Part shown: piece after piece, positions 7,283 to 29,627 of the stretch
How the letters are laid out: each line of letters begins with the position of its first letter
Numbering within the stretch: the stretch's first letter is position 1
From: Candidatus Latescibacterota bacterium
GTDB lineage: Bacteria > Latescibacterota > UBA2968 > UBA8231
Length of the DNA stretch: 29,627 nucleotides
Reading direction: 5' to 3'
Assembly: GCA_965221775.1 (NCBI GenBank)
Contig: CBDCSU010000002.1
Location: 1 to 29,627 of the forward strand
Notes under the pieces: generated by a model
Database searches by the model: none
Seen by the model: the letters and a program-made list of their open reading frames with translations, nothing else
What the model was told of the DNA's origin: nothing
Made by a program: the position numbers and the translations under genes

Positions 7283-9481
7283 GTGAAGATCCCGCCCGCA
7301 CGCCCCCTCCTGCTCGCCGCCCTCGGCCCGCTCCTGCTGGCCGCCCCCGGGTGGTGCGCCTGGCCCGCCTGGCGCGGGCCCTTCCAGAACGGCACCGCCG
7401 CGGAGACCGGTCTCGTCGAGTCCTGGACCCCGGGCGGCGCCGGCCAGGCCTGGAGGGCCGCCTTCACCGGCCGCTCCACGCCCGTCGTGCTCGACGGACG
7501 GGTCTTCATCGCCGGGCGCGCCGGCAAGGACGTCACCGAGCAGGAGCAGGTCGCCGCCTTCGACGCGGCCACGGGGGAGCTGCTGTGGGAGGACCGCTTC
7601 AACGTCTTCCACACGACCATCCCCTTCAACCGCGTCGGTTGGGCCAGCCCGGCGGCCGATCCGGAAACCGGCCGGCTCTACGTCCACGGCGTGCAGGGGC
7701 TGCTGCGCTGCTACGGCCGCGACGGCGAGCTGCTGTGGGAGCGCTCCCTCACCGAGGAGTTCGGCCGCATCTCCGGGTACGGCGGGCGGGTGCAGACGCC
7801 GGTCGTGGCCGGCGGCCTGGTGATCCTCAACTTCCTCAGCAGCGGCTGGGGCGCCCACGGCGTGCCCCGCGACCGCTACTTCGCCTTCGACAAGCACACG
7901 GGCGAGGTCGTCTGGGTTTCCGCCCCGGGCGGGCGCCCCCTCGACACGACCTACTCGACCCCCGTGGTCGCCGAGATCGGCGGCGAGCGGCTGATCGTCG
8001 CCGGCAACGCCGACGGCTCGGTCTACGCCATGCGCCTGGCCACCGGCGAGAAGCTCTGGGGCTTCCGGCTGAGCCGCCGCGGGCTGAACGCCGCCGTGGT
8101 CGTCGGCGGCGACCGCGTCTACGCCAGCCACGGCGAGGAGAACATCGACGGCAACACCATGGGCCGCGTCGTCTGCATCGACGCCCGCGGCCGGGGGGAC
8201 GTGACCGAGACCCACGAGTTGTGGCGCTACGACGCCCTGAGCGGGTACGCCTCGCCGGCCCTGGCCGGCAGCGTCCTCTACGTGATCGACAACTCCGGCA
8301 ACCTCCACGCCCTCGACGCCGACAGCGGCCGGCGGCGCTGGCACCGCAACCTCGGCACCGTGGGCCGGGGGTCCCCGGTGGTCGCCGACGGCAAGCTCTA
8401 CGCCACCACCGTGAACGGGCGCTTCCACATCCTGCGGCCGGGGGAGACCGGCGGCGAGCTGCTCGACAGCGACCAGGTCCTGGCCGCCGACGGCGGTCCG
8501 GCGGAGATCTTCGGCTCGCCCGCCGTGGCCCACGGGCGCGTCTACTTCACCACCGACGAGGGTCTGTACTGCCTCGGGAACGGCCCCGGGCCGGTGGAGA
8601 GCTCGGGGCCTCCCCCGGCGCCGGCGGAAGCCCCTCCCGGCGAGGCCGTGGGCCTGCAGCTGATCCCCGCCGAGAGCACCGTCGAGCCGGGCGGTTCCGT
8701 GCGCTTCGAGGCCCGCCTCGTGGATGCCATGGGGCGGGTCACCGGCGCCGTCGAGGCGGGAGACTGGTCGACGGAGGGTCTGGCCGGCCGCCTCCGGGAA
8801 GGCGTGTTCACCGCCGATGCCGGCCCTGACCACGGGGGTGTTGTCACCCTCTCGGCCGGCGGCTTCACGGCCCGCGCCCGGGTGCGCGTCCTCACGCGGA
8901 AGTCGTGGAGCCTCGACTTCGGAGCGGCCGGCGCCGTCGAGGAGGAGCGGCCGGTCCCCGGGCACTGGATCGGCTCGGCGGGCGGCAAGTTCCTCCTGCG
9001 CCGGGTGGAGGGCGAGGAGATGCTGTACAAGCCTTTTGCCCGCCGCGGCCTGCAGCGCTCCAACGTCTACCTCGGGCCGGCGGACCTGAGCGGGTACACC
9101 ATCCAGGCGTCGATGATGGGCGACCGGCACCGGCGCAACCTCCCCGACATGGGCCTCATCGCCCAGCGCTACACCCTCGACCTGATGGGCAACCACCAGC
9201 AGCTCCAGGTCCGCTCCTGGGCCTCGGACCTGCGCATGGCGGCGAGCGTCCCCTTCGAGTGGGAGAGCGGCGTCTGGTACACCATGAAGATGCGCGTCGA
9301 CCTCGAAGCCGGGGGGGCCGTGGTGCGTGGCAAGGTCTGGCGCCGGGGGGACCCGGAGCCCGCCGCCTGGACGATCGAGGCCCCCGACCCGCTGCCGAAC
9401 CGCCAGGGCGCGCCCGGCCTCTACGGCCACTCGGCCGCCGAGATCCACTATGACGACGTGGTGCTGGAGATCGATGAATAG
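7283..9481 (+). CDS. Secreted PQQ-like beta-propeller protein with C-terminal Ig-like and lectin-like beta-sandwich extensions (732 aa)
   Basis: Signal peptide, WPAWRGP, propeller repeats up to ...GLYCLG, Pro-rich linker (GPPPAPAEAPP), then ~280 aa of beta-rich sequence (YTIQA, WYTMKMRVD, VRGKVW, GLYG, YDDVVL). Confidence 0.85.
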   Translation: MKIPPARPLLLAALGPLLLAAPGWCAWPAWRGPFQNGTAAETGLVESWTPGGAGQAWRAAFTGRSTPVVLDGRVFIAGRAGKDVTEQEQVAAFDAATGELLWEDRFNVFHTTIPFNRVGWASPAADPETGRLYVHGVQGLLRCYGRDGELLWERSLTEEFGRISGYGGRVQTPVVAGGLVILNFLSSGWGAHGVPRDRYFAFDKHTGEVVWVSAPGGRPLDTTYSTPVVAEIGGERLIVAGNADGSVYAMRLATGEKLWGFRLSRRGLNAAVVVGGDRVYASHGEENIDGNTMGRVVCIDARGRGDVTETHELWRYDALSGYASPALAGSVLYVIDNSGNLHALDADSGRRRWHRNLGTVGRGSPVVADGKLYATTVNGRFHILRPGETGGELLDSDQVLAADGGPAEIFGSPAVAHGRVYFTTDEGLYCLGNGPGPVESSGPPPAPAEAPPGEAVGLQLIPAESTVEPGGSVRFEARLVDAMGRVTGAVEAGDWSTEGLAGRLREGVFTADAGPDHGGVVTLSAGGFTARARVRVLTRKSWSLDFGAAGAVEEERPVPGHWIGSAGGKFLLRRVEGEEMLYKPFARRGLQRSNVYLGPADLSGYTIQASMMGDRHRRNLPDMGLIAQRYTLDLMGNHQQLQVRSWASDLRMAASVPFEWESGVWYTMKMRVDLEAGGAVVRGKVWRRGDPEPAAWTIEAPDPLPNRQGAPGLYGHSAAEIHYDDVVLEIDE

Positions 9482-10901
9482 ACGGAACCTGCTCCTTCTG
9501 GCCGCCCTCGCCGCCGCCCTTCCCGCGGGCGCCGAAGAGGCGATGTGGGGACACACCCGGGCCCGCAACATGGTCTCGGAGGCGGTCGACCTGCCGGTCG
9601 AGTGGGACGTGGCCACGGGAGAAGGCGTGCTCTGGTCCGCTCCCCTCGGCTCCCAGACCTACGCCGGCCCGCTGCTGGCGGGCGGCAAGCTCTTCATCGG
9701 CACCAACAACCAGGGCCTGCGCGACCCCCGGCTCACCGGCGACCGCGGCGTGCTCATGGCCTTCGCCCGGCCCGGGGGCGCCTTCCTGTGGCAGTCGACG
9801 CACACCAAGCTGCCCGCCGGCCGCGTCAACGACTGGCCCCAGCAGGGCATCTGCTCCACCCCCTACATCGACGGCGACCGCCTCTACTACGTCTCCAACC
9901 AGGCGCAGGTGGTCTGCGTCGACACCGAGGGCTTCGCCGACGGCGAGAACGACGGCCCCCTCACCGGCGAGGCCTCCACCGGCCCCGCCGACGCCGATCT
10001 GGTCTGGTCCTTCGACATGATCGAGGAGCTCGACGTCTTCCCCCACAACCTGGCCACCTGCTCCCCCGCCGGTCTCGGCGACCTCCTCTTCGTCGTCACC
10101 TCCAACGGCGTCGACGAGGGCCACGTCCACATCCCGTCGCCTTTCGCCCCCTCCTTCATCGCCCTGCGCAAGTCCACCGGCGAGCTGGTCTGGGAAGACG
10201 CCTCCCCCGGCCTGGGGATCCTCCACGGCCAGTGGTCGAACCCGGCCATCGGCGTCATGGGGGGCCGCCCCCAGGTCCTGTTTCCCGGCGGCGACGGCTG
10301 GCTCTACTCCTTCGAGCCGGAGACGGGAGAGCCGATCTGGAAGTTCGACTGCAACCCCAAGGACTCGGTGTGGGAGCTGGGGGGACGGGGGACGCGCAAC
10401 AACCTGATCTCGACGCCGGTCATCGTCGGCGACCGCGTCTACCTCGGCGTCGGCCAGGACCCGGAGCACGGCGAGGGCCGCGGCAACCTGTGGTGCATCG
10501 ACGGCACCGGCCGCGGCGACGTGACCGGTTCGCACGCGGTCTGGCACCTAGGCGGCGAGGAGTACAACCGCACCATGTCCACCGCGGCGATCGACGACGG
10601 CCTGCTCTACATCGCCGACCTGAGCGGCTTCGTCTACTGCCTCGACGCGGCCACGGGCGAGAAGAAGTGGACCTACGACACCTTCGCCGCCATCTGGGGC
10701 TCGCCCTTCGTGGCCGACGGCAAGGTCCATATCGGCGACGAGGACGGCGACGTGACGATCTTCCGGGCCGGCCCCGAGCTGGAGGTGATCGCCGAGATCA
10801 ACATGGGCAGCGCCGTGTACACCACGCCCGCCGCCGAGGACGGCATCCTCTACGTGGCCTCGCGCAACACCCTCTTCGCCCTGGGCTCGCCGCGGCCGTG
10901 A
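9474..10901 (+). CDS. Secreted PQQ-like beta-propeller protein (acidic)
   Basis: Start reassigned to ATG 9474 (MNRRNLLLLAALAAALPAGA signal peptide, 8-bp overlap with the upstream gene). Propeller repeats GICSTP, LISTPV, IWGSPF, VYTTPA. Confidence 0.85.
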   Translation: MNRRNLLLLAALAAALPAGAEEAMWGHTRARNMVSEAVDLPVEWDVATGEGVLWSAPLGSQTYAGPLLAGGKLFIGTNNQGLRDPRLTGDRGVLMAFARPGGAFLWQSTHTKLPAGRVNDWPQQGICSTPYIDGDRLYYVSNQAQVVCVDTEGFADGENDGPLTGEASTGPADADLVWSFDMIEELDVFPHNLATCSPAGLGDLLFVVTSNGVDEGHVHIPSPFAPSFIALRKSTGELVWEDASPGLGILHGQWSNPAIGVMGGRPQVLFPGGDGWLYSFEPETGEPIWKFDCNPKDSVWELGGRGTRNNLISTPVIVGDRVYLGVGQDPEHGEGRGNLWCIDGTGRGDVTGSHAVWHLGGEEYNRTMSTAAIDDGLLYIADLSGFVYCLDAATGEKKWTYDTFAAIWGSPFVADGKVHIGDEDGDVTIFRAGPELEVIAEINMGSAVYTTPAAEDGILYVASRNTLFALGSPRP

Positions 10902-11983
10902 CCGACTCCGGCGGTCCGGTGGATCGCGTGAGCGCCGCCCGTCAGGCCCTCGACGCCCACGTGCGCGAGATCGTGGCCTGGCACTTCGACCCGGCCACGG
11001 GCTGCCCCTTCTGGCTCGAGCGCGCCGCAGAGCTGGGCTTCGACCCCCGCGACCGCATCGGCGGCTACGCCGACTTGGAGGTCCTCGGCCTCTTCCGGGA
11101 CGAGTGGCTGCGCGGCGGCCCCGTGCGCCGCTGGGTGCCGCGAGCGTTCGCCGGCGAGCCCGTCTTCGTCTTCGAGACCGGCGGCTCCACCGGCGTGCCC
11201 AAGAGCCGCATCAACATCCGCGACTTCCAGGTCGACTACGCCGCGTTCTCCGAGAGCCTGCCCGAGGAGGGCTTCCCCCGGGGCGGGGACTGGCTCATGC
11301 TGGGGCCGTCGGGGCCGCGGCGCCTGCGCCTGGCCGTGGAGCACCTGGCGCAGATGCGCGGCGGCCTCTGCTTCCTCGTCGACCTCGACCCGCGCTGGGT
11401 GAACGTCCTGATCCGGCGGCAGGCCCACCAGGAGCTGGCCGCGTACAAGGCCCATGTCGTCGACCAGGCCCTGAAGATCCTCCGCGCCCACGACACGATC
11501 CGCTGCCTCTTCGCGACGCCGCGCCTGCTGGAGGCCCTGTGCGAGAAGATCGACCTGATGAAGGCGGGCATCCGGGGCGTGTTCTGCGGCGGCACCGAGA
11601 TGGACGCCCAGTTCCACCGCTTCGCCCGCGAGGAGCTGGTGCCGGGAGCGGCCTTCGTGCCGACCTACGGCAACACCCTCATGGGGCTGGCCCTGTGCAA
11701 GCCCTTCGACCCGGCCGACGACTACGCCATCACCTACTACGCGCCGCAGCCGCGGGCGGTGATCGAGCTGGTCGATCGCGACGACCCCGGGCGCCCCGTC
11801 GACTACGGCGAGACCGGGCGCGTGCTGCTGACGACGCTCACCCGCGAGTTCTTCATGCCCCGCTTCCTGGAGCGCGACGAGGGCGAGCGGGCCCCGCCGA
11901 CGGAGAGCTGCCCCTGGGACGGCGTGCGCGACCTGCGCCTGCTGGCCTCCCTCGAGGAGAGCGTCACCGTGGGGGTTTACTAG
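10898..11983 (+). CDS. Atypical adenylate-forming enzyme, EhpF/GriC-like
   Basis: GTG start overlapping the upstream TGA. WHFDPATGCPFWLERA..LGFDPR, P-loop FETGGSTGVPK, YGNTLMG, VDYGETGRV..TTL..EFFMP..LERD, recalled as characteristic of the phenazine-modifying EhpF and aryl-carboxylate reductase GriC family. Confidence 0.75.
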   Translation: MTDSGGPVDRVSAARQALDAHVREIVAWHFDPATGCPFWLERAAELGFDPRDRIGGYADLEVLGLFRDEWLRGGPVRRWVPRAFAGEPVFVFETGGSTGVPKSRINIRDFQVDYAAFSESLPEEGFPRGGDWLMLGPSGPRRLRLAVEHLAQMRGGLCFLVDLDPRWVNVLIRRQAHQELAAYKAHVVDQALKILRAHDTIRCLFATPRLLEALCEKIDLMKAGIRGVFCGGTEMDAQFHRFAREELVPGAAFVPTYGNTLMGLALCKPFDPADDYAITYYAPQPRAVIELVDRDDPGRPVDYGETGRVLLTTLTREFFMPRFLERDEGERAPPTESCPWDGVRDLRLLASLEESVTVGVY

Positions 11984-11984: not shown

Positions 11985-13430
11985 ATGGCCGGCGGCCTCG
12001 TGCACGTCCCCGTGCTGCGCGCCGGCCGCGAGTACGCCAGCCGCCGGCGGCGGCGGCTGACCGACGTGCGCACCGGCGATCCCGCGGCCGAGGTGAGCCT
12101 CGCCAACGGGGGCCTGATCGCCCGCGACCTGGCGGGGGCGGCTGCCAACCGCCAGGCCCTGGAACGGATCCCGGCCGGGGAACTGGTGGCCCTGTGCGGC
12201 GAGGCCGCCCGCCGCTTCCGCCAAGATCGCCTGCCCGTGGACGGCGAGACGGACCAGTCCTTCGACGACTACCTGTCCCAACTGGCGGCCACGGCGGGCA
12301 TGCCCCCGAGCCTGGGGCGGCGCAACGCCGGCAAGATCGGCGGCGTCCTGGAGTCGATGGACCGGGTGCTGGACGGCCTCACCCGGGGCCTGGACCTGGC
12401 CGTCGTCGACGCCGGCTGGGGCGAGGAGGGAGGCCGCACGATCAGCTACCGGCGCCGGACCGACGTCCTGGGCGCGGTGCTGCCCAACAACTCGCCGGGG
12501 GTCCACACCCTGTGGCTGCCCGCGGTCCCCCTCAAGACGCCCCTGGCCCTGCGCCCCGGCGCCCGCGAGCCGTGGACGCCCCTGCGCCTGGCCCGCGCCT
12601 TCATCGCCTCCGGGTGCCCGCCCGAGGCCTTCGGCTTCTACCCCGGGGACCACGACGGCGCCGTGGAGATCCTGGTGCGCTGCGGCCGCTCCCTGCTCTT
12701 CGGCGGCGACGACACCGTCGACCCCTGGCGCGGCGATCCCCGCGTCGAGATCCACGGCGCCGGCCGCAGCAAGATCCTGCTCGGGCCGGACGTGACCGAC
12801 TGGGGGGAGCATCTCGACCTGATCGCCGCCTCGGTGGCCGACAACGGCGGCCGCTCCTGCCTCAACGCCTCCGGCGTGTGGACCACCGGCCACGGCCTCG
12901 ACCTGGCCCAGGACCTCGCAGAGCGCCTGGCGCGAATCGAGCCGAGGCCGCTGCACGACCCCGAGGCCGCCCTGGCCGCCTTCCCCGAGCCCCGGACGGC
13001 GCGGGCGATCTCCGCCCACATCGACCGGCTCCTGGCCGGCGGCGGCGCCCGCGACCTGACGGCCGAGGTCCACGGCGGCGACCGCCTCGTCGAGGTCGAC
13101 GGCTGCACCTTCCTGCGGCCCACGGTCGTGCACTGCGAGGACCCCTCCCACCCCCTGGCCGACACCGAGTACCTCTTCCCCTTCGTCTCGGTGGTGGAGG
13201 CAGCCGACGCCGACACCATGCTCGGGGCGATCGGCCCCACCCTCGTGGCCACCGCCCTGACCGAGGACCCCGGCCTGCGGGGCCGGCTCATGGACCATCC
13301 CGGCATCGACCGCCTGAACCTCGGGCCGGTGCCGACGACGGCGATCTCCTGGGAGCAGCCCCACGAGGGCAACCTCTTCGAGCACCTCTACCGGCGCCGG
13401 TCCCTCGGGCGCGCCCGACGCCGCGCCTGA
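11985..13430 (+). CDS. Aldehyde dehydrogenase-fold protein (GriD/EhpG/LuxC-like reductase component)
   Basis: VLPNNSPGVH, LRPGAREP, FGG, catalytic-Cys region NGGRSCLNAS, EYLFPFVSV, C-terminal PHEGNL. Directly follows the EhpF/GriC-like gene. Confidence 0.8.
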   Translation: MAGGLVHVPVLRAGREYASRRRRRLTDVRTGDPAAEVSLANGGLIARDLAGAAANRQALERIPAGELVALCGEAARRFRQDRLPVDGETDQSFDDYLSQLAATAGMPPSLGRRNAGKIGGVLESMDRVLDGLTRGLDLAVVDAGWGEEGGRTISYRRRTDVLGAVLPNNSPGVHTLWLPAVPLKTPLALRPGAREPWTPLRLARAFIASGCPPEAFGFYPGDHDGAVEILVRCGRSLLFGGDDTVDPWRGDPRVEIHGAGRSKILLGPDVTDWGEHLDLIAASVADNGGRSCLNASGVWTTGHGLDLAQDLAERLARIEPRPLHDPEAALAAFPEPRTARAISAHIDRLLAGGGARDLTAEVHGGDRLVEVDGCTFLRPTVVHCEDPSHPLADTEYLFPFVSVVEAADADTMLGAIGPTLVATALTEDPGLRGRLMDHPGIDRLNLGPVPTTAISWEQPHEGNLFEHLYRRRSLGRARRRA

Positions 13431-13435: not shown

Positions 13436-14587
13436 GTGAGGCCCTTCGACCTCGACGGCGGGACCCGCGTCCTCTTCGGCGCCGGCCGCCTCGGCGAGCT
13501 GGGCGCCGAGACCGCCCGCCTGACGGCCGGACCGGTGCTGCTGGTCTCGGACCCCGGGGTGGCGGCGGCCGGACACACCGGCCGGGCCGCCGATTCCCTG
13601 GCCGCGGCCGGGCTCGAGGTGGTCCGCTTCGACGGCGTCGGCGAGAACCCCACCACCGGGCAGGTGGAGGCCGGCGCCGAGACCGCCCGCCGCCAGGGAC
13701 CCGTGGAGGCCGTCGTCAGCGTCGGCGGGGGCAGCGCCATGGACTGCGCCAAGGGGATCAACTTCTTCCTCAGCCACGGCGGCCCCATGGAGGACTGGGA
13801 GGGCGACGGCGACCGCGGTCCCATGCTGCCGTCCATCGGCGTGCCGACTACCGCCGGCACCGGCAGCGAGGCCCAGCGCTTCGCCCTGATCTCGCGCCAG
13901 GCCGACCACCGCAAGATGGCCTGCGGCGACCCCGGGGCCCGCTTCCGCACCGTGATCCTCGACCCGGAGCTGCCCCTCTCGGCGCCTGCCCGGGTCGCCG
14001 CGGCGGCCGCCATCGACGCCGTCGCCCATGCCGTGGAGAGCTTCACGGCGACCAACGCCAATCCCGTCTCGCGTCTGTACGCCCGCCAAGCCGCCCGCCT
14101 TCTCTTCGGCGCCTTCGAGGGCTGGGTCGCCGATCCGGCGGCCGGTGCCGGCGCCGGCGAGATGCTCCTCGGCGCCCACTGGGCCGGGACCTCCATCGAG
14201 CACTCCATGCTCGGCGCCGTCCACGCCTGCGCCAACCCGCTGACCCGGGCTCACGGCGTCACCCACGGCGTCGCCGTGGGCCTCATGCTCCCTCACGTGA
14301 TCCGCTTCAACGGCGGCGCCGCGGAGGGGCTGTACGCGGGGCTGCTGCACGCTTCGGGGACGGGGACCGCTTCGAAGACGGGCACCGACGCCGCCGAGAC
14401 CCTGGCCGTGCGCGTGGAGGAGCTGCTGGAGGCGGCCTGCCTGCCGCGGCGGCTGCGGGAACTGGGGGTGGCGGCCGACGGCCTGGAGGCGCTGGCGGCG
14501 GAGGCGGCGGAGCAGAAGACGGCGCGGTTCAACCCGCGGCCGGTGGGCGCGGCGGAGTGTGCGGGGCTCTATGGGGGAGCGTATTGA
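13436..14587 (+). CDS. Iron-containing alcohol dehydrogenase
   Basis: GTG start 13436. GGGSAMDCAK, VPTTAGTGSE, metal ligands DAVAH, GAVH and THG. Confidence 0.92.
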   Translation: MRPFDLDGGTRVLFGAGRLGELGAETARLTAGPVLLVSDPGVAAAGHTGRAADSLAAAGLEVVRFDGVGENPTTGQVEAGAETARRQGPVEAVVSVGGGSAMDCAKGINFFLSHGGPMEDWEGDGDRGPMLPSIGVPTTAGTGSEAQRFALISRQADHRKMACGDPGARFRTVILDPELPLSAPARVAAAAAIDAVAHAVESFTATNANPVSRLYARQAARLLFGAFEGWVADPAAGAGAGEMLLGAHWAGTSIEHSMLGAVHACANPLTRAHGVTHGVAVGLMLPHVIRFNGGAAEGLYAGLLHASGTGTASKTGTDAAETLAVRVEELLEAACLPRRLRELGVAADGLEALAAEAAEQKTARFNPRPVGAAECAGLYGGAY

Positions 14588-14634
14588 GGCGCCGGGCGCC
14601 TGAACGCCGGACCCCCGGTGGGTCTCCTCCCCGA

Positions 14635-21738: not shown

Positions 21739-21841
21739 AAGCACCCTCCTGGCCGCTCCAAGTGCCTGAGCTGGCCATCTCCTCTCACCGTTGCCCTGCA
21801 TTCCGGTCGGACAGGGCCTCCCCAGGCCCGGTTACTTCCAC

Positions 21842-23128
21842 GTGACCCGCAGACCCACCCTACCCGGAACAAACGGCCTCGCCGCCTGCCTGATCGCCGC
21901 GAGTCTCCTCGCCGCCTCTCCCGCCCCGGCCGCGGACTGGCCCCAGTGGCGGGGCCCCGAGCGGGACGGCCGCGCCCCCGGTTTCCAGGCTCCGGCCGCC
22001 TGGCCGGACAGCCTTCGCCGCGAGTGGCACACCGAGGTCGGCGAGGGGCATGCCGGGCCTGTCGTCGTGGGCAACCGCGTGTACGTGCACGCCCGCCTCG
22101 ACGACCTGGAAACCCTCTCCTGCCTGTCCCTGGCCTCGGGCGAGGTGCTGTGGCGGCAGACGAACCCGGCGCCCTACGAGATGCACCCGGCGGCCCTGGG
22201 GCACGGCAAGGGCCCCAAGTCGACGCCGGCCGTTGCCGGGGGCCGCATCTTCACCCTGGGCATCACCGGCATCCTGTCCTCCCACGACGCGGCCAGCGGA
22301 GAGCTGCTGTGGCGCTGGGACTCCGAGGGCCGCTTCCCCGCCACGGCCCCGCTCTTCGGGACGGCTACCTCTCCCCTGGTCGTCGGAGATCTCGTGGTCG
22401 CTCACTTGGGCGGTCCCGGCCGCGGGGCCCTGCTGGCGCTGGCCGCCGACAGCGGCGAGGAGCGCTGGCGCTGGGAGGGGGACGGCCCAGGATACGCCTC
22501 TCCCTTGGTGGTCGACGCCGGGGGCCCGGTACTCGTGACCCAGTCGGAGCGGTTCTGCCTCGCCCTCGACGCGGCCACCGGCAAGGAGCTGTGGCGCCTC
22601 CCCTTCACCACTCCGTACGACCAGAACATCGTCACGCCCGTTCTCCTCGGGCCGGGGACGGTGGCTTTGTCGGGCTTGGAGCAAGGCACCCTGAGTCTTC
22701 GCTTTGATCGAGACGGGACCGGCCTCCAGGCGCGGGAGCTGTGGCACAACCCGCAGGACTGGCTCTACATGGCCTCGCCAGTGGTCTCCGGGGGCCGCCT
22801 CTTCGGATTGACGAGGAAATACCGGGGCCGGTTGTTCTGCCTGGACGCGGACACGGGCGAGAGGCTCTGGGAAGGTCCCGGGGAGTTGGGCGACAACGCC
22901 GTCCTCGTCGACCTGGGATCCGCCCTGCTGGTGCTGACCACCGGGGCCCGCCTGGCGGTGGTCTCCTCAACGGCGCCGGAGTTCAGCCTGCTTGCGGAGT
23001 ACCGCGTGGCCGAGAGTCCCACGTGGGCCCACCCGGCCGTGGCCGGCGAGCGGTTCCTCGTGAAGGACAGAACCCATCTCGCCTGCTGGCGGCTGCCCGC
23101 CGCCGAGACCGGGCAGGCCGCTCCCTGA
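21842..23128 (+). CDS. Secreted PQQ-like beta-propeller protein
   Basis: Signal peptide, ADWPQWRGP.RDG, GPKSTP, GYASP, YMASP, TWAHPAVAG. Start placed at GTG 21842; the ORF track's 21791 is also possible. Confidence 0.85.
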   Translation: MTRRPTLPGTNGLAACLIAASLLAASPAPAADWPQWRGPERDGRAPGFQAPAAWPDSLRREWHTEVGEGHAGPVVVGNRVYVHARLDDLETLSCLSLASGEVLWRQTNPAPYEMHPAALGHGKGPKSTPAVAGGRIFTLGITGILSSHDAASGELLWRWDSEGRFPATAPLFGTATSPLVVGDLVVAHLGGPGRGALLALAADSGEERWRWEGDGPGYASPLVVDAGGPVLVTQSERFCLALDAATGKELWRLPFTTPYDQNIVTPVLLGPGTVALSGLEQGTLSLRFDRDGTGLQARELWHNPQDWLYMASPVVSGGRLFGLTRKYRGRLFCLDADTGERLWEGPGELGDNAVLVDLGSALLVLTTGARLAVVSSTAPEFSLLAEYRVAESPTWAHPAVAGERFLVKDRTHLACWRLPAAETGQAAP

Positions 23129-23296: not shown

Positions 23297-23623
23297 GTGA
23301 CCGGCCAAACGCTCCATAGAGTGATTCAACTGGTCCGCCAAGGCGAAGCAAGAGTGTCGGTACACGGGTACGATGAAATGGCGGCAGACGACATCAGAGT
23401 GCAGGATGTGGTTGAAGGGGTGGAAGATGCGATTATCGTTGAAGATTACCCCCACTACGCCAAGGGCCCCTGCGTGCTCGTCCTGCAGCACGACCGAGCA
23501 GGACAACCGATACACATTGTGTGGGGTATCCCTTCTGGACACACTTCACCAGCCGTCGTAGTAACGGCCTATCGCCCCAACGCACAGGATTGGGACGAGC
23601 ACTTCCTCAGGAGGCGTACGTGA
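23297..23623 (+). CDS. DUF4258-like protein (putative toxin)
   Basis: SVHGYDEM..DDI, IIVEDYP....GPCVLVL....G.PIHIVWG, VVVTAYRP...W...F..R. Lower GC. Confidence 0.75.
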   Translation: MTGQTLHRVIQLVRQGEARVSVHGYDEMAADDIRVQDVVEGVEDAIIVEDYPHYAKGPCVLVLQHDRAGQPIHIVWGIPSGHTSPAVVVTAYRPNAQDWDEHFLRRRT

Positions 23624-23835
23624 TGAGCAAACCCACCACGAAACTGCTGCGTGTAGGGGAGTATGCTGCGGAGGTGGAAGTGGAACTGATCGAAGGGGGG
23701 GCGGGATGGCCGCCTTATCTGACCGTGGAGGACGCCTACAAGCTCGATGATGTTCGTGAGGCTCTGAGGGTTGGTGATCTGGAGCACGCAGCCCGGATGG
23801 CCCGGGTATTCCGCCTGACTCCCATTGGGGCATGA
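23623..23835 (+). CDS. Small hypothetical protein, probable partner/antitoxin of the DUF4258-like protein
   Basis: TGATG coupling with RBS AGGAGG. 70 aa, KLLRVGEYAAEVEVELI...W.PYL..EDAYKLDDVREALR.GD. Confidence 0.65.
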   Translation: MSKPTTKLLRVGEYAAEVEVELIEGGAGWPPYLTVEDAYKLDDVREALRVGDLEHAARMARVFRLTPIGA

Positions 23836-23940: not shown

Positions 23941-24705
23941 ATGGACCGCCTTCGCCCCGTCCTGCTCCTCGACGTGGACGGGGTCATCCTCGACAACGAG
24001 CGCTGGGAGGAGGAGTCCGCGCGGCTGGGCGGGCCGGCCCTGGCCTCTCTGCTGGGCGGCGATCCCCGGGCGTGGGCGGCCCACCAGGAGAGGGTCTGGC
24101 AGGAGGTGTGGAGGCGCGGCTGCCGCGAGTTCCGCGGCGACGCGGGGCTCCGCGGGCTCAACCTCTCCCGCTGGTGGGACCGGGTCGAGGCGGAGTGGAT
24201 CGCGGAGGTGTGCGGAGTCGTCGGCGTCGCGGCCCCGGAGACGTTCGAGGAGCGGGTCGATGTTGCGGAGCGGGCAACGGTCCACATCCTCGAGAACACG
24301 GAAGGCTTCTTCCCCGGGGCCGCGGAGGCGATCGAGGAACTCTCCGGCCGCTTCGAGATCCACATGGCGTCGGGGAACCCCTCCTTCGTCGTCGAGACGG
24401 TGCTGCGCAGGCTGGGCGTGAGAGACCGGGTCGGGGGACCTTTCGGCTCCGATCTGGTCGGCTGTCAGAAGGGAGACTCGCGGTTCTATCCGGCCATCCT
24501 CGAGGCCGTGGAAGCCGTACCTTCTCTTGCGATCGTGGTGGACGACGGTGAGGAGCCCCTCGCTTCCGCGCGTGCGGCCGGGCTGAGGACGGTCAAGGTG
24601 GGAGGCGCTGCCTCGAACGAGTCCGACTTGGCGGTGGGATCTCTCGCCGAGCTGCCGGATGTCATTTCAGAGGTCGTGGAACTTACCGAAACGGAGACTG
24701 AATGA
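23941..24705 (+). CDS. HAD-superfamily hydrolase
   Basis: Motif I LLLDVDGVILD, motif II MASGN, motif III K (GCQKG), motif IV VVDD....ASARAAGL. Confidence 0.85.
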   Translation: MDRLRPVLLLDVDGVILDNERWEEESARLGGPALASLLGGDPRAWAAHQERVWQEVWRRGCREFRGDAGLRGLNLSRWWDRVEAEWIAEVCGVVGVAAPETFEERVDVAERATVHILENTEGFFPGAAEAIEELSGRFEIHMASGNPSFVVETVLRRLGVRDRVGGPFGSDLVGCQKGDSRFYPAILEAVEAVPSLAIVVDDGEEPLASARAAGLRTVKVGGAASNESDLAVGSLAELPDVISEVVELTETETE

Positions 24706-24992
24706 GCGACGACAGAGAGCCTTCGGCCGAACCGGCCGCCACCGAGGCGGATCGCAGAGCCCCCGCGACTGACAGTCCACGGGCCCGCCACCTCGTCTAC
24801 ATCCTCCTGGGGATCCTCTACCTCCTCCACAACGACCTGTGGCTGTGGAACGACGGCCGCCTGGTGGCCGGCCTGCCGGCGGGGCTGGTCTACCACGTCG
24901 GCTTCTGCGCCGCCGCCTCGGGGGTGCTCTACCTGCTGGTGACCCGGGCCTGGCCGGCGCACCTGGACGAGCAGGGGGAGGAGCGGCCATGA
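24702..24992 (+). CDS. Small two-TM membrane protein (DUF3311-like) associated with the symporter
   Basis: LYLLHNDLWLW.....GLP.GL.YH. ATGA-coupled on both sides, directly upstream of the SSS gene. Confidence 0.7.
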   Translation: MSDDREPSAEPAATEADRRAPATDSPRARHLVYILLGILYLLHNDLWLWNDGRLVAGLPAGLVYHVGFCAAASGVLYLLVTRAWPAHLDEQGEERP

Positions 24993-26449
24993 CTCTCGCC
25001 GTCATCGCCGTCTACCTCGGGCTGGTGATCCTCGTCGGCTCCCTGAGCCACCGGCTCTTCCGGGGCACGGGCGAGGACTACTTCGTGGCCAGCCGCTCCA
25101 TCGGCCCCTTCCTGCTGCTCATGTCCCTCTTCGGGACCAACATGACGGCCTTCGCCATCCTCGGGGCCTCGGGCGAGGCCTACCACGAGGGCATCGGCGT
25201 CTTCGCCCTCATGGCCTCCGCCTCGGCCCTGGTCATCCCGTGCGTGTTCTTCTTCGTCGGCACGCGGGTGTGGGCCCTCGGCAAGCGCCACGGCTTTCTG
25301 ACGCAGGCCCAGTTCTTCCGCCAGCGCTGGCAGTCGGACGGGCTCGGGCTGCTGCTCTTCGTCGTGCTGGTGGCCCTGCTGGTGCCCTACCTGCTGATCG
25401 GCATCATGGCCGGCGGCCTGACTCTGCAGCAGATCACCGGCGGCCAGGTGCCGGAGTGGGCCGGCGGCCTGCTGGTCTGCGCCGTGGTCATGACCTACGT
25501 CTGCTACGGCGGCCTCCGCGGCACCGCCTGGGCCAACGCCTTCCAGACCCTGGTCTTCACCATCCTCGGCGGGGTCGCGTTCTACGTCATCATCAGCCGC
25601 CTGGGCGGCCTGCAGGCGGTGATGACCGCCCTCGGCGAGTCCCATCCCGACCTGCTGGTGCGGGGCGACCACATCAAGCCCCTGAAGCTGCTCACCTACA
25701 CCTGCATCCCCCTGTCGGTGGGCATGTTCCCGCACATGTTCATGCACTGGCTCACGGCGCGCAGCGCCGGCACCTTCCGCACGCCCCTGGTCCTCTACCC
25801 GCTGTGCATCGCCGCCGTGTGGGTGCCCAGCGTCCTCCTCGGCGTCTCGGGGCGTCTCGACTTCCCCGATCTGCAGGGGCCGGCGGCCAACTCGATCCTG
25901 GTGCGCCTCATCGACCTCCACGCCCCGGAGGTGATGGCCGGCCTGCTGGCGGCCGGGGTCTTCGCCGCGGTCATGTCCTCCCTCGACTCCCAGTCCCTGT
26001 CGGTGGGCACCATGTTCACCCAGGACATCGTCCGCCACTACGGCTTCCACAACCGCATGTCCGAGGGCCAGCAGGTCCTCTACGGCCGCCTCTTCGTGGC
26101 CCTCGTCCTGGTCGTCGCCTACGTCATCGCCCAGGTCTCGAACCGCTCGATCTTCCAGCTCGGGGTCTGGTCGTTCACCGGCTTCGCCTCCCTCTTCCCG
26201 GTGGTGGCGGCCGCCGTGTTCTGGCGCCGCAGCACCGCCTGGGGGGCCTTCGCCTCCATCGCCAGCGTCATCGTCCTGTGGACCTGGTTCTTCAGCCGCG
26301 GCTGGCAGAGCTCCGACCATGCCCTGGCCGGCGGCGTCATGCCCGTGGCCGTGATCCTCGCCGTCTCGACGGCCGCCATGATCCTCGTGTCGCTGGCCAC
26401 GCGGCCGCCGGACCGGGCCGTCGTCGACCGCTTCTTCCCCCGGGACTGA
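24989..26449 (+). CDS. Sodium:solute symporter (SSS) family transporter
   Basis: ATG 24989. EDYFVASRSIG, GGLRGTAWANAFQ, AAVMSSLDS, about 13 hydrophobic segments. Confidence 0.92.
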   Translation: MTLAVIAVYLGLVILVGSLSHRLFRGTGEDYFVASRSIGPFLLLMSLFGTNMTAFAILGASGEAYHEGIGVFALMASASALVIPCVFFFVGTRVWALGKRHGFLTQAQFFRQRWQSDGLGLLLFVVLVALLVPYLLIGIMAGGLTLQQITGGQVPEWAGGLLVCAVVMTYVCYGGLRGTAWANAFQTLVFTILGGVAFYVIISRLGGLQAVMTALGESHPDLLVRGDHIKPLKLLTYTCIPLSVGMFPHMFMHWLTARSAGTFRTPLVLYPLCIAAVWVPSVLLGVSGRLDFPDLQGPAANSILVRLIDLHAPEVMAGLLAAGVFAAVMSSLDSQSLSVGTMFTQDIVRHYGFHNRMSEGQQVLYGRLFVALVLVVAYVIAQVSNRSIFQLGVWSFTGFASLFPVVAAAVFWRRSTAWGAFASIASVIVLWTWFFSRGWQSSDHALAGGVMPVAVILAVSTAAMILVSLATRPPDRAVVDRFFPRD

Positions 26450-26455: not shown

Positions 26456-27748
26456 GTGAGGGTGGCCTGCATCGCCGCCGGCGCCGGCGGCATGTACTGC
26501 GGCAGCTGCATCCACGACAACACTCTGGCCGCGGCCCTGATGCGCCTCGGCGTCGACGCGACCCTGGTGCCGGCGTACACCCCCCTGCGCACCGACGAGG
26601 AGAGCGTCGGCCTGGAGCGCGTGTTCTACGGCGGCATCAACGTCTACCTGGAGCAGAAGTCCGCCGTCGTGCGGCGCCTGCCCTCCTGGGCGACGCGGCC
26701 CCTCGACCGGCCGGGCCTGCTGCGCTGGGTCGCCGGCCGCTTCGGCGCCTCCACCGAGGCGCGCGACCTGGGGGCCCTCACCCTCTCGGTGCTGCGCGGC
26801 GAGGAGGGGTTCCAGCGCCGCCGGCTGGAGGAGCTGGTCCGCTGGCTGGAGCGCGACCTGCGCCCGGATCTGGTGCAGCTGCCCAACACCATGTTCGCCG
26901 GGCTGGCGGGGCCCCTGAAGCGGCGTCTCGGAGGGCCGGTCCTGTGCGCCGTGCAGGGGGAGGAGATCTTCCTCGACCGGCTGGTGGAGCCCTACCGCGC
27001 GCAGGCCCGCGAGGAGTTGCGGAAACGCGCCGCCGACGTGGACGGGTTCGTGTCGCCGTGCGCGGCGTACGCCGACTACATGGCCGGCTACCTGGACGTG
27101 CCCCGGGAGCGCTTCCACGTGGTGCCCCTGGGGCTGCGGCTGGAGGGGCACGGCCCGCCGCCGGAAGCCGCGCGCGGCCCGGGGCCGTTCCGCATCGGCT
27201 TCCTGGCCCGCATCTGCCCGGAGAAGGGACTGCACGTGGCCGCCGGCGCCCTGCGCCTGCTGGCGGAGCGCCTGGGGCCGGAGGCGGTGCGCCTGGAGGC
27301 GGCCGGCTGGCTGGGCCCGGCGGACGAGGCCTACTACGAGGAGGTGAGGAGCGGACTCGAGGCCGACGGACTGGCCTTCGAGTACCGCGGCAGCGTGGAC
27401 CGGGCTGCCAAGATCGAGTTCCTTCGGAGCCTGCACGCGCTCACCGTGCCGGCCCCCTACCACGAGCCCAAGGGGCTGTACGTGCTCGAGGCGCTGGCCA
27501 ACGGGGTGCCCGTGGTGCAGCCCCGGCACGGCGCCTTCCCGGAGCTGGTGGAGGGCACCGGCGGCGGGCTGCTGGTGGGGGCGGCCGATCCGGAGCCGGT
27601 GGCAGCCGGCCTGCAGACGCTCTGCGAGGACGAGGACCTGCGCCTGCGCCTCGGGCGCCAGGGCCACGCGGCCGTGCACGAGAGCCGCGGCGACGCGGTG
27701 ATGGCGGAGCGCACCCGCGACGTGTACGAGCGCTTTCTGGCGGGGTGA
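26456..27748 (+). CDS. Glycosyltransferase family 4 (GT-B)
   Basis: IGFLARICPEKG, YHEPKGLYVLEALANGVPVV (Ex7E). N-terminal GAGGMYCGSC. Confidence 0.88.
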   Translation: MRVACIAAGAGGMYCGSCIHDNTLAAALMRLGVDATLVPAYTPLRTDEESVGLERVFYGGINVYLEQKSAVVRRLPSWATRPLDRPGLLRWVAGRFGASTEARDLGALTLSVLRGEEGFQRRRLEELVRWLERDLRPDLVQLPNTMFAGLAGPLKRRLGGPVLCAVQGEEIFLDRLVEPYRAQAREELRKRAADVDGFVSPCAAYADYMAGYLDVPRERFHVVPLGLRLEGHGPPPEAARGPGPFRIGFLARICPEKGLHVAAGALRLLAERLGPEAVRLEAAGWLGPADEAYYEEVRSGLEADGLAFEYRGSVDRAAKIEFLRSLHALTVPAPYHEPKGLYVLEALANGVPVVQPRHGAFPELVEGTGGGLLVGAADPEPVAAGLQTLCEDEDLRLRLGRQGHAAVHESRGDAVMAERTRDVYERFLAG

Positions 27749-27770: not shown

Positions 27771-28235
27771 ATGACGTGGCTGCTCTTCGCGCTGATGTCC
27801 GTGCTGTTCTGGGGGACCTACGGCGTGCTGCTGCACACCGGCGTGACGGCCATGGCCGATCCCGTGAACGGCCGGTTCAAAGCCTTCCTCTTCGTCGGCG
27901 CCGCCTACCTGCTGGTGGCCGTCCTCGGCTCGCTGATCGTGCTGAAGATCAACGGCGCCCAGTGGCAGAGCCTGCCCGCCGCCGGCGTCACCTGGTCGAC
28001 CCTCGCCGGGGTGGCGGGCGCCGTGGGCGCCCTGGGGGTGCTGCTGGCCTTCGGCGCCGGGGGCTCGCCCGCCGTGGTCATGTCCCTGGTCTTCGCCGGG
28101 GCCCCGGTGGTCAACGCCGCGGTGGCCATGGCCGTGCACCCGCCCGCCGGCGGCGTCCTCAACTGGCCCTTCCTGCTCGGTGTGCTGATGGCCGCCGCGG
28201 GCGGCTGCCTGGTCACCCTCTACCGTCCCACCTGA
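27771..28235 (+). CDS. Five-TM membrane protein, DMT/EamA-like
   Basis: Strong RBS AGGAGG. W....FWGTYG, AGAVGALG, VMSLVF.GAPVVNA. Five hydrophobic segments. Confidence 0.7.
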   Translation: MTWLLFALMSVLFWGTYGVLLHTGVTAMADPVNGRFKAFLFVGAAYLLVAVLGSLIVLKINGAQWQSLPAAGVTWSTLAGVAGAVGALGVLLAFGAGGSPAVVMSLVFAGAPVVNAAVAMAVHPPAGGVLNWPFLLGVLMAAAGGCLVTLYRPT

Positions 28236-28239: not shown

Positions 28240-28662
28240 GTGGCCTCCGAGTTCCGCACCACCCGCCGCATCGAGTTCGAGGACACGGACGCGGCCCGCA
28301 TCGCCCACTTCTCCCGCTTCTACGTCTTCATGGAGCAGGCCGAGCACGCCTTCCTGCGCTCCCTGAACCTGTCCGTGGAGATGGAGCTGGAGGGCCGCCG
28401 TCTCGGCTGGCCGCGGCTGGCGGCGTCGTGCGAGTTTCTCGAGCCGGTGCGCTTCGAGGAGGAGGTCGAGGTCCACCTCACGGTGAAGCGCAAGGGGGAG
28501 AAGTCGATGACCTACGCCGTCGAGTTCTCCCGCCGCGGCCGGCCCGTGGCCCGCGGCGAGATCACCTCCGTCTGCTGCGAGTGCGGGGAGGACGGGTCCC
28601 TCACCGCGATCCCGATCCCCGAGGTCTTCGCCTCCCGGATCGAGGAGCACGGACGGGCCTGA
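28240..28662 (+). CDS. Acyl-CoA thioesterase (4HBT/YbgC hotdog fold)
   Basis: RRIEFEDTDAARIAHFSRF...MEQAE, CEFLEPVRFEE, KSMTY. Confidence 0.85.
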   Translation: MASEFRTTRRIEFEDTDAARIAHFSRFYVFMEQAEHAFLRSLNLSVEMELEGRRLGWPRLAASCEFLEPVRFEEEVEVHLTVKRKGEKSMTYAVEFSRRGRPVARGEITSVCCECGEDGSLTAIPIPEVFASRIEEHGRA

Positions 28663-28780: not shown

Positions 28781-29479
28781 TTGTCCGGTCCGCAGGAACC
28801 CCGCGCCCCGGCCCTGGTCCTGCGCCGGCTGAGCAAGTCCTTCGACGGCGCCGACGGCGCCGTGCCCGTCCTCGCCGGGATCGACCTGACCGTGGAGGCG
28901 GGCGCGTCGGTGGCGGTCACCGGCCCTTCCGGATCGGGCAAGAGCACCCTCCTGCACCTGATCGGCAGCCTCGACGAGCCCACCGGCGGCGGCCTCGAGG
29001 TGGACGGCGTCGACCCCTTCTCCCTCGGAGAGAGGGAGCTGGCCCGCTTCCGCAACGACGCGGTCGGCTTCGTCTTCCAGGACCACCATCTGCTGCCGCA
29101 GCTCGACGTGCTGGAGAACGTGCTGATCCCCACCCTCGCCTTCGGCACCCCCGATGAGACCGACGAGGAGCGCGCCCGGGAGCTGATCGAACGCGTCGGC
29201 CTCTCCCACCGCCTCGGGCACCGGCCGGGACAGCTCTCCGGCGGCGAGCGCCAGCGCGCGGCGGTGGCCCGGGCCCTGATCCGGCGGCCACGGCTGCTGC
29301 TGTGCGACGAGCCCACGGGCAGCCTCGACCGGAACACGGCCGGGGCCGTGGCCGACCTGCTCTTCGAGCTGCACGCCGAGGAGGAGGCCCTGCTGCTGCT
29401 GGCCACCCACAACGAGGCGCTGGCGCGGCGCTGCGACCGCGTCCTCGAGCTGCGCGACGGACGGTGCTCCGAAGTCTGA
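28781..29479 (+). CDS. ABC transporter ATP-binding protein (LolD/MacB type)
   Basis: Walker A GPSGSGKST, GFVFQ.HHLLP, LSGGERQR.AVARAL, LLCDEPTGSLD, ATHN. Exact start uncertain. Confidence 0.92.
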   Translation: MSGPQEPRAPALVLRRLSKSFDGADGAVPVLAGIDLTVEAGASVAVTGPSGSGKSTLLHLIGSLDEPTGGGLEVDGVDPFSLGERELARFRNDAVGFVFQDHHLLPQLDVLENVLIPTLAFGTPDETDEERARELIERVGLSHRLGHRPGQLSGGERQRAAVARALIRRPRLLLCDEPTGSLDRNTAGAVADLLFELHAEEEALLLLATHNEALARRCDRVLELRDGRCSEV

Positions 29480-29627
29480 TCCACTACCGGCGGGTGCACG
29501 CCGCCACGGCCCTCGCCGCGGCGGTGTGCGCGGCCGTCCTCGCGGGGGCCCTGGTGGTGGGCGACTCGGTGCGGACCAGCCTGCGGAACCTGACCCTGGA
29601 GCGCCTGGGGCGGGTGGAGCACGCCGT
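29464..29627 (+). CDS. ABC transporter permease (FtsX/MacB-like), N-terminal fragment running off the window
   Basis: Not in the ORF track. GTG 29464: MLRSLIHYRRVHAATALAAAVCAAVLAGALVVGDSVRTSLRNLTLERLGRVEHA, a typical first TM of these permeases. Overlaps the ATPase stop. Confidence 0.75.
   Translation, partial: MLRSLIHYRRVHAATALAAAVCAAVLAGALVVGDSVRTSLRNLTLERLGRVEHA

Follow-up and report, generated by a model that had tools for sequence, protein, structure and literature searches.

A gene set shared by Latescibacterota, Poribacteria and Acidobacteriota that combines a flavin-dependent halogenase, a predicted carboxylate reductase and exported propellers

Described systems and the Latescibacterota locus

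The gene cluster considered here occupies positions 7283 to 29627 of a contig from a Candidatus Latescibacterota bacterium (CBDCSU010000002.1, assembly GCA_965221775.1; the window is this entire contig of 29,627 bp). Its closest described counterpart is the "Halo_AMP" pseudoclass of sponge-microbiome clusters, defined by a flavin-dependent halogenase (FDH) together with an AMP-binding enzyme (Loureiro et al., bioRxiv 10.64898/2026.08.03.742642). That preprint has 20 Halo_AMP components and gives an in-depth analysis of an acidobacterial family with P450s; in its sections on the class, no family has a MIBiG member and no product is assigned. By its definition the window carries a Halo_AMP cluster: the gene of a PaaK-like ligase (18518-19774) overlaps the start of the halogenase gene at 19771. 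Further likenesses are radical SAM, glycosyltransferase (GT), thioesterase, ABC transporter, TonB and toxin-antitoxin (TA) genes and frequent PQQ-like domains, whereas an EhpF-type reductase pair, a link to chorismate lyase and phyletic patterns are not described in the abstract or in sections 14-16. An initial annotation, made from the letters of the window, knew of no product assigned to this gene combination; this stands insofar as Halo_AMP has none assigned in those sections, but the class itself is already in print as an orphan (bioRxiv 10.64898/2026.08.03.742642). The same preprint was the only relevant text in a search for literature on halogenase or PQQ-like gene clusters of Poribacteria and Latescibacterota. 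PQQ repeats are also listed where a study of sponge Latescibacterota treats their eukaryote-like proteins (PMC12993501).

The cluster class is thus uncharacterised but already noticed, and it joins known halogenase and carboxylate-reductase chemistry to tightly linked exported propellers that are unexplained. The genes form one conserved system, and of this we are much more confident than of the pathway. For the latter, we consider the chances about even that the system starts from a hydroxybenzoate-type acid and yields a halogenated alcohol tagged with a sugar, which would be exported to four secreted propellers.

Parts of the locus can be compared with better-characterised systems. The bmp pathway of marine bacteria, to which the Halo_AMP preprint also refers, comprises the chorismate lyase Bmp6 and the brominases Bmp5 and Bmp2. 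Chorismate-lyase-type hydroxybenzoate supply and an FDH are common to both systems, and Bmp2 is among the closest solved relatives of the window's halogenase; in contrast to bmp, the window has no P450 coupling enzyme or carrier protein, and its reduction, glycosylation, export and propeller genes are absent from bmp. Two-protein carboxylic acid reductases are represented by EhpF/EhpG, from the D-alanylgriseoluteic acid (phenazine) pathway of Pantoea agglomerans, and by GriC/GriD, from the grixazone pathway. As in these pairs, an adenylase of ~360 aa, similar to EhpF over its full length, precedes a protein of the aldehyde dehydrogenase (ALDH) superfamily with a catalytic-type Cys. Unlike them, the window's pair sits among exported propellers and is ~70-75% identical across phyla, and its reductase is termed EhpG/GriD-like by role. 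A literature search on GriC/GriD listed nothing that concerns this family.

With a GC content of ~72%, genes on the contig were called from codon-position GC and family matches. The genome measures 5.36 Mb in six contigs and is 96.8% complete and 7.75% contaminated according to marker counts. All genes from 7283 to the contig end lie on the plus strand, where 22 coding-type frames were found (GC at third codon positions 0.85-0.97, first positions richer than second). Three of these are TA-like (PIN-like, 21081-21566; DUF4258, 23297-23623; orf70, 23623-23835), leaving 19 others, compared with about 18 in the initial annotation. The last of the 19 is interrupted at 29627, inside an ABC permease gene, where the contig ends and the downstream boundary becomes unreadable. 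All six stop/start overlaps noted previously were seen (GTGA at 10898, ATGA at 15795, TGATG at 17160, GTGA at 19771, and ATGA at 24702 and 24989), and two more were added, of 8 nt between PQQ1 and PQQ2 (with PQQ2 starting at 9474) and of 4 nt between the ABC ATPase and permease genes. Intergenic gaps do not exceed 100 nt except next to the genes for the PIN-like protein, PQQ5 and DUF4258 and upstream of the ABC ATPase gene.

Pfam recovered the families that had been named (SSF, Fe-ADH, Radical_SAM with HemN_C, Trp_halogenase, GT4, 4HBT, HAD, ABC_tran and five times PQQ_2), as did NCBIfam and PDB matches for the PaaK-like ligase and PDB matches for the EhpF-like adenylase (Table 1). The absence of a scaffold synthase was also borne out, with no polyketide synthase (PKS) or nonribosomal peptide synthetase (NRPS) domain in 32 frames scanned against Pfam. 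None of the enzymes from the adenylase to the halogenase reaches a curated NCBIfam equivalog cut-off, so they are members of families rather than named enzymes. An Rfam scan of the window gave no family at gathering score, and a promoter and terminator scan of positions 5900-25000 gave nothing usable (one promoter-like site, on the minus strand, and five terminator-like sites, versus 0.3 and 3.4 expected).

Table 1. Plus-strand features of the window from position 7283 onwards, with the matches on which each name is based
Feature	Positions	Strand	Basis
PQQ1, exported PQQ_2-type propeller	7283..9481	+	PQQ_2 1.3e-35, signal peptide
PQQ2, exported 8-bladed propeller, most conserved of the set	9474..10901	+	Orthologue-guided start, signal peptide
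EhpF-like stand-alone adenylase, without ANL C-terminal subdomain	10898..11983	+	PDB match to EhpF
ALDH-superfamily reductase, EhpG/GriD-like by role	11985..13430	+	Weak Aldedh match, 6.9e-7
Iron-type alcohol dehydrogenase (FeADH)	13436..14587	+	Fe-ADH 1.9e-40, ADH_Fe_C; below all NCBIfam equivalog cut-offs
PQQ3, exported propeller	14557..15798 (likely start 14635)	+	PQQ_2 9e-49, Beta-prop_ACSF4 1.8e-56, signal peptide
HemN-like (class C type) radical SAM enzyme	15795..17162	+	Radical_SAM and HemN_C
PQQ4, exported propeller	17162..18436	+	PQQ_2 2.2e-33, signal peptide
PaaK-like aryl/acyl-CoA ligase	18518..19774	+	AMP-binding_C_2
Flavin-dependent halogenase	19771..21015	+	Trp_halogenase; PDB halogenases
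Lone PIN-like protein, 161 aa	21081..21566	+	PIN 6.8e-4, below cut-off
PQQ5, exported propeller, non-conserved	21791..23128	+	PQQ_2 7.5e-30
DUF4258 gene and overlapping 70-aa gene	23297..23835	+	DUF4258 1.8e-17; in 0/90 loci
HAD hydrolase, non-conserved	23941..24705	+	Hydrolase 9.8e-13
DUF3311 small subunit and sodium:solute symporter	24702..26449	+	DUF3311 1.8e-7, SSF 5.3e-38
GT4 glycosyltransferase	26456..27748	+	Glycos_transf_1, Glyco_transf_4
EamA-like half transporter (lead), 154-aa membrane protein	27771..28235	+	ESM Atlas 0.98, "putative EamA domain" clusters
Hotdog (4HBT/YbgC-type) acyl-CoA thioesterase	28240..28662	+	4HBT_2, 4HBT
ABC exporter: LolD/MacB-type ATPase (28781-29479), then permease start (cut)	28781..29627	+	ABC_tran 1.1e-32

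A gene set conserved in three phyla

To compare gene neighbourhoods we used 90 loci: 40 kb around the adenylase gene in 10 genomes from three families of one Latescibacterota class, and the best 80 of 580 relatives retrieved in a ligase-alignment scan with one genome per species. The core order PQQ1-PQQ2-adenylase-reductase-FeADH-PQQ3-radical SAM-PQQ4-ligase-halogenase, followed by (DUF3311-sodium:solute symporter [SSS])-GT4-EamA-thioesterase-ABC, is kept in the 10 fetched genomes, with occasional insertions. The cluster is split in three of the ten (G006, G019 and G025), and the split clusters, that of G029 included, retain both halves. Loci with the full order among the best 80 bear Latescibacterota titles. 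In 45 of these 80 the halogenase adjoins the ligase, accompanied by the radical SAM gene in 38 and by a propeller in 37; five others are truncated clusters, and 30 have the ligase in other contexts, with titles that include Nitrospira, Acidimicrobiia, Chloroflexota, Binatia, Methylomirabilota and Scalinduaceae.

Phyletic distributions agree with this. Of 41 relatives, 28 carry the adenylase (70-97% identity), and PQQ2 occurs in exactly these 28. The halogenase occurs in 81 of 151 genomes sampled from the phylum, confined to three families (36/63, 27/30 and 17/19) and missing from eleven others. Over the 35 genomes common to both searches, which include kin and are hence not independent, adenylase and halogenase occur together in 23 and are both missing in 10, while the two with the adenylase alone are 84-86% complete. 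Within the window's own genus, both genes are missing from four of the eight genomes sampled, which points to loss of the whole set. Within the genome itself, 6 of the ~12-13 PQQ_2 genes lie on this contig, which makes up 0.55% of the sequence; this concentration and the recurrence of the gene order elsewhere indicate that the cluster is more than chance.

Beyond Latescibacterota, Poribacteria retain PQQ2-adenylase-reductase-FeADH-PQQ3-radical SAM-ligase-halogenase, often with an added TAXI-TRAP transporter, TonB-dependent receptor or PhyH dioxygenase, and in one genome (G154) the same contig carries SSS-GT4-EamA at a distance of 28 kb. In a Blastocatellia genome (G153) the set is dispersed: one contig carries ligase-orf-radical SAM-halogenase with an SSS gene and a large outer-membrane barrel, a second the adenylase (64% identity) with a propeller, and a third the reductase (50%) with GT4 (45%). 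Three genomes with only the ligase were found to be without the adenylase, the reductase and the EamA-half gene. The same set, differently arranged in three phyla, is the strongest argument for one functional system. The prediction that these genes would co-occur in other genomes was therefore strongly upheld, although the relatives that could be named belong to Latescibacterota, Poribacteria and Acidobacteriota rather than to Planctomycetota and Verrucomicrobiota, which had also been put forward.

The unity of the distal part is less evident, and it could be argued that there is more than one pathway here, GT4-EamA-thioesterase-ABC being a housekeeping operon for envelope glycolipids or lipoproteins that merely adjoins the rest. 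The LolD- and YbgC-like names of two of its members are in keeping with this, as are the location of the GT4-to-ABC part away from the halogenase in most Poribacteria loci and the failure to find the EamA-half gene in the Blastocatellia genome. Yet the part follows the halogenase in 7 of 10 Latescibacterota genomes, in one Poribacteria locus (L075) and in locus L042, its GT4-EamA portion shares a contig with the cluster in G154, and GT4 adjoins the ALDH-like reductase in G153. Moreover, the ABC ATPase does not reach the LolD cut-off (TIGR02211, 242.7 versus 307.75), and the permease, of which the window holds the first 50 codons, has 1106-1144 aa in relatives (two FtsX domains and MacB_PCD), unlike LolC/E at ~400 aa. 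We give the housekeeping explanation little probability.

Sequences related to the window are not restricted to assembled genomes. Sponge and marine metagenome runs from several studies, excluding possible source runs, contain 0.34-0.52 of the window's sequence words, and contigs of 1-3 kb from three such runs differ from it by 1-3%. From an RNA-library run (X20), contigs of 565-871 nt with ~90-95% identity span the PQQ1/PQQ2, PQQ2/adenylase and radical SAM/PQQ4 junctions, and others cover the halogenase and SSS genes. As these derive from a relative, the library may contain DNA and two genes on one contig need not share a transcript, they are only a hint of co-transcription. Two cluster genes in other genomes are interrupted: the PQQ2 orthologue of G040, located on a different contig than the cluster (C2:506164-507513), has one in-frame TAG, and the halogenase match of G027 (C2:3455781-3456659) one in-frame TGA. 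These may reflect decay or assembly errors.

A candidate route from an aromatic acid to an exported product

The proposed pathway can be divided into three modules, for which the established families, motifs, gene order, co-occurrence and export signals serve as the basis and from which we infer substrate, order of steps, sugar acceptor, halide and the role of the propellers. In the first, a hydroxybenzoate-type acid, derived from chorismate via a lyase in many relatives and here probably imported by the DUF3311-SSS symporter, would be activated as a thioester by the PaaK-like ligase, halogenated by the FDH and modified at a carbon by the radical SAM enzyme, most simply by C-methylation, before the hotdog thioesterase frees the tailored acid. 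In the second, the adenylase bound to the ALDH-like reductase would convert the carboxylate to an aldehyde at the expense of ATP and NAD(P)H, and the iron alcohol dehydrogenase would convert the aldehyde to an alcohol. In the third, GT4 would add a sugar, the EamA-like half transporter and the MacB-type ABC exporter would move the product out, and the exported, BamB-sized propellers PQQ1-4 would bind or convert it.

The aromatic nature of the starter, suggested by the initial annotation, gains backing from gene context. Immediately upstream of the ligase, 19 of the 80 ligase loci and one of the 10 genomes (G030; 20/90 in total) carry a chorismate pyruvate-lyase-like gene (PF01947), more often beside ligases without a halogenase (15/35) than beside those with one (4/45). 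Eighteen of the 28 cluster-bearing relatives have this gene, in several cases far from the cluster, versus none of the 13 others. Because the lyase-like gene travels with the ligase and, among these 41 relatives, is restricted to cluster-bearing genomes, the ligase subfamily most likely acts on the lyase product, a hydroxybenzoate. One of nine genomes of the window's genus has a chorismate lyase, and none was found in this genome, so the acid would be imported or made by another route; the SSS pair is the obvious candidate importer. DUF3311-SSS genes occur in 5 of the 10 genomes and 14 of the 80 loci, always between the FDH and GT4 or beside the ligase.

A side observation concerns the loci that have only the ligase (L054, L077, L091, L096 and others). 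These encode the same ligase subfamily at 55-60% identity with a chorismate-lyase-like gene and no halogenase, bear the titles of Nitrospira, Scalinduaceae, Gammaproteobacteria, Acidimicrobiia and other metagenome-assembled genomes, and sometimes include aminoglycoside-N-acetyltransferase-like or UDP-GlcNAc 2-epimerase genes as neighbours. Judging from sequence and context, the ligase and lyase-like gene are a separate, widespread pair with a predicted role in hydroxybenzoate activation.

The recurrence of importers raises the question of whether the cluster, instead of supporting de novo biosynthesis, takes up an aromatic acid from the environment through outer- and inner-membrane importers and then activates, modifies and reduces it, for salvage, detoxification or catabolism. 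Consistent with this, SSS, TAXI-TRAP and TonB-dependent receptor genes recur in or beside the cluster, which suggests that the acid is often taken up, and this genome has no chorismate lyase of its own. Many relatives do encode one, however, and neither ring-cleavage nor benzoyl-CoA pathway genes were found in the window (Pfam). In addition, a halogenase whose motifs are intact, a GT, an exporter and the ATP-dependent conversion of an acid into an alcohol are anabolic or tailoring features that argue for a tailoring and export pathway and not for catabolism. Hence, we regard the uptake explanation as quite unlikely. With respect to location, TAXI-TRAP pairs follow the halogenase in Poribacteria, and a TonB-dependent receptor or large outer-membrane barrel lies in or by the cluster in four lineages (L119, L042, L032 [G040] and L121).

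The ligase itself matches 2-hydroxyisobutyryl-CoA synthetase (6hdw, 4.4e-60) and PaaK (4r1l, 3e-54) in the PDB, and as a member of the wider PaaK-like family it stays below the PaaK cut-offs (231.7 versus 700 for NF041878 and 208.7 versus 646.3 for TIGR02155). An enzyme of this type could instead act as an amide-forming ligase that couples the aromatic acid with an amine or amino acid, giving a small halogenated amide or peptidic product. In its sections on the FDH and AMP-binding class, the Halo_AMP preprint argues for small brominated peptidic products and cites the PaaK-like ligases of the bagremycin and yatakemycin clusters (bioRxiv 10.64898/2026.08.03.742642), and the window's ligase has a weak NCBIfam match to BagE/FevW (108 bits versus a cut-off of 800). 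Against this, no amine-supplying enzyme, P450, peptide or carrier gene was found in the window by Pfam, and an aryl-CoA-type thioesterase together with a separate carboxylate reductase fits a free acid intermediate better. An amide product therefore appears unlikely to us, and the route through a free acid is retained.

Halogenases alone make up the nearest PDB matches of the FDH (8zop, 1.3e-66; Bmp2, 5bul, 1.5e-51; CndH, Mpy16, PltA and CmlS; E values from 1e-44 to 1e-66). It carries the GxGxxG motif as GGGPAG at residue 11, a catalytic-type Lys at position 72 that aligns with that of 8zop, and WFWYIP at 217. WxWxIP and the Lys, which carries the halogenating species, are conserved halogenase motifs; all 52 orthologues in the loci compared have both, and 50-52 of them keep the Gly residues of GxGxxG. 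What had been called a halogenase-like enzyme thus possesses the residues characteristic of halogenases, judged from its sequence. It scores below the CmlS cut-off (179 versus 900), and unlike phenol- and pyrrole-type halogenases it is without a carrier protein or NRPS/PKS partner. A literature search on 8zop gave nothing relevant.

The radical SAM enzyme is most similar to HemN (1olt, 6.7e-34) and to the class C methyltransferase NocN (9p2u, 4.8e-29), with CxxxCxxC conserved in 51 of 51 orthologues. Its scores lie below the cut-offs of HemN (172/325), HemW (161.5/205.4), HutW (179/400) and STM4012 (182/380). A tetrapyrrole pathway, suggested by a HemN-like enzyme beside carboxylate-activating enzymes, was considered and set aside on account of the intact motifs of the halogenase and the link to chorismate lyase.

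For the acid-to-aldehyde reduction, claimed from the outset, several lines of evidence agree. Residues 7-360 of the 361-aa adenylase align with residues 7-365 of EhpF (366 aa; PDB 3l2k/3hgu, E 3.4e-38), and the reductase gene begins 1 nt after the adenylase stop and encodes a GRSC motif whose Cys292 is invariant in 25 orthologues. Adenylase and reductase are predicted to bind as a complex, with a score of 0.78 in three runs, whereas the best of three controls scored 0.01. Among solved complexes 116 of 157 attain the mark applied, as do 2 of 215 mismatched pairs; since our own alignments were used, these counts are a rough guide here. The predicted interface involves residues 236-246 of the adenylase and 39-50 of the reductase. 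The runs share at least 92% of contacts, with a predicted local distance difference test (pLDDT) score of at least 90 for the partners. A PDB sequence search with the adenylase returned EhpF alone and no complex, which makes it less likely that the predictor reproduced a solved structure, and the complex is still a prediction. The working label LuxE/LuxC was dropped as neither Pfam nor NCBIfam gave such a match and the adenylase matches EhpF.

Among the distal genes, GT4 has weak PDB matches of the MshA, PimA and BshA types. Its N terminus (26456-26560) starts GGMYCGSC, with a CxxC by the glycine-rich acceptor loop. The 154-aa membrane protein always follows GT4 and is 62-77% identical in relatives. 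It has no Pfam or NCBIfam match, and its initial assignment as a drug/metabolite transporter (DMT)-type exporter is a lead from one language-model look-up (ESM Atlas). The best PDB match of the thioesterase is 5wh9, deposited as a 4-hydroxybenzoyl-CoA thioesterase (2.6e-15). Synteny in relatives stops after the ABC permease. Release by the HAD hydrolase, an earlier suggestion, finds no support, as this gene is present in 1 of 10 genomes (G007, of the same genus) and 0 of 80 loci.

Several points weigh against the route from a hydroxybenzoate to a halogenated alcohol. As noted, no chorismate lyase was found in this 96.8% complete genome, and the starter is here a guess, while importers that recur in this way are seen more often in loci for uptake or catabolism than in those for biosynthesis. 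Neither a carrier protein nor a flavin reductase is encoded in the window according to the Pfam scan, and Bmp2, Mpy16 and PltA, among the closest solved halogenases, act on carrier-bound substrates. With the radical SAM enzyme below every equivalog cut-off, methylation is one among several possible reactions. Identities of 70-75% between phyla for PQQ2 and the adenylase are unusually high for secondary metabolism, and the numerous invariant His, Asp, Glu and Cys residues of PQQ2, itself ~70% identical across phyla, would fit an enzyme better than a passive binder. In view of this level of identity, the propellers may be enzymes to which the product is supplied.

Exported propellers and local insertions

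Signal peptides predicted from sequence on all five plus-strand propellers agree with the earlier description of these proteins as secreted, and none ends in a lipobox Cys. The number of five has to be revised to four core propellers, as PQQ5 is found in 1 of 10 genomes and 2 of 80 loci. PQQ1 is present in 8 of 10 genomes, is 50-61% identical in other families of the class and carries an additional C-terminal domain of ~290 aa. The latter has no Pfam match and falls in unnamed ESM Atlas clusters, with a lead at 0.90 to Laminin-G and 3-keto-disaccharide-hydrolase-like proteins. PQQ3 adjoins the radical SAM gene in both Latescibacterota and Poribacteria, and PQQ4 is encoded by 6 of the 10 Latescibacterota genomes and by 19 of the 80 loci.

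PQQ2 was assigned its start at 9474, which yields a signal peptide; orthologues have one just upstream of an MWG motif. Among the best 120 of more than 8000 matches it is 67-77% identical (71-77% for homologues titled Latescibacterota), and the best 120 of more than 8000 adenylase homologues are all at least 72% identical. An AlphaFold (AF2) model of PQQ2 from a 32-row alignment is an eight-bladed propeller (pLDDT 83.8). In a fold search with this model, BamB was the best PDB match at 17-19% identity and PQQ dehydrogenases ranked lower, the matches being generic eight-bladed propellers that give no functional clue. The PQQ_2-repeat architecture is therefore shared with BamB and PQQ-dependent alcohol dehydrogenases, but the propellers differ from BamB in their low identity, the missing lipobox Cys and the BamB cut-off (TIGR03300, best score 162.6 versus 285.2), and from PQQ dehydrogenases in the respective cut-offs (TIGR03075/TIGR03074, best 87.9 versus 480) and in being too small.

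If the propellers are catalytic, the cytoplasmic enzymes could make a small aromatic cofactor that is exported and inserted into the four of them. There is precedent in PQQ, which serves quinoproteins, and in heme d1, which serves the NirS, NirF and NirN propellers. By this analogy, the exported halogenated aromatic glycoside would be a dedicated cofactor or pro-substrate of four propeller enzymes. The interleaving of propeller and enzyme genes with identical phyletic patterns, the conservation of PQQ2 and its polar residues, the survival of an adenylase and propeller pair in the Blastocatellia genome where the system is dispersed, and the concentration of propeller genes in this contig would all be accounted for. 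On the other hand, the propellers are BamB-sized, BamB fits them best with PQQ dehydrogenases ranking lower, and no quinoprotein cut-off is reached; furthermore, we know of no redox cofactor of which halogenation or glycosylation is a feature. A family search for pqqC gave no match in this genome, nor in any control genome, and so carries no weight. Overall, cofactor supply seems improbable, and we continue to favour a tailored, exported product that the propellers may bind or convert.

Several genes within the cluster do not belong to the conserved set. Sequence comparison indicates that the HAD, PQQ5 and TA genes are local insertions, seen in the same genus at most except for PQQ5 in 2 of 80 loci and look-alikes of the PIN-like gene. 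The latter has no NCBIfam or PDB match and no antitoxin-sized gene alongside; look-alikes with 32-37% identity occur in six Poribacteria loci, in five of them between PaaK and FDH (L078, L085, L089, L100 and L109, at ~11300-11900). The PIN-like protein may have an accessory role in the system and not be a stray toxin.

Upstream of the cluster, a Phd/PIN pair (5985-6676, 4-nt overlap) resembles the DUF4258 pair in its lower GC (0.63-0.66) and its absence from all 90 loci, and both pairs look like inserted TA-type cassettes. A 184-aa frame just upstream of PQQ1 (6695-7249), with a partial SWI2_SNF2 match (profile positions 146-205) and a match to the type I restriction R-subunit C-terminal profile (232-297), looks like the remnant of a type I restriction gene. 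The minus strand from 2 to 5896 encodes DNA polymerase III alpha, truncated where the contig begins, a 7-bladed lactonase that scores under the cut-off for 6-phosphogluconolactonase, and another exported PQQ_2 propeller, the sixth on the contig; these genes are syntenic within the genus alone (G006 and G007).

The system is abundant, as the adenylase and PQQ2 each have more than 8000 close homologues, and near-unchanged across phyla of mostly uncultured, largely sponge-associated bacteria. It has long been asked which organisms make the halogenated aromatics found in sponges, and loci without a scaffold synthase are missed by rule-based cluster finders. With the gene set defined, a likely starter acid proposed and an enzyme complex predicted, this can be tested through heterologous expression. 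BamB-like exported propellers are very numerous in these phyla, and the operon is a good place to learn their role. Should the propellers prove to be enzymes that depend on the exported compound, this would be a new case of a molecule made in the cytoplasm, exported and used in the periplasm, like PQQ and heme d1, in several little-known phyla, and the halogenase would belong to a near-housekeeping pathway.

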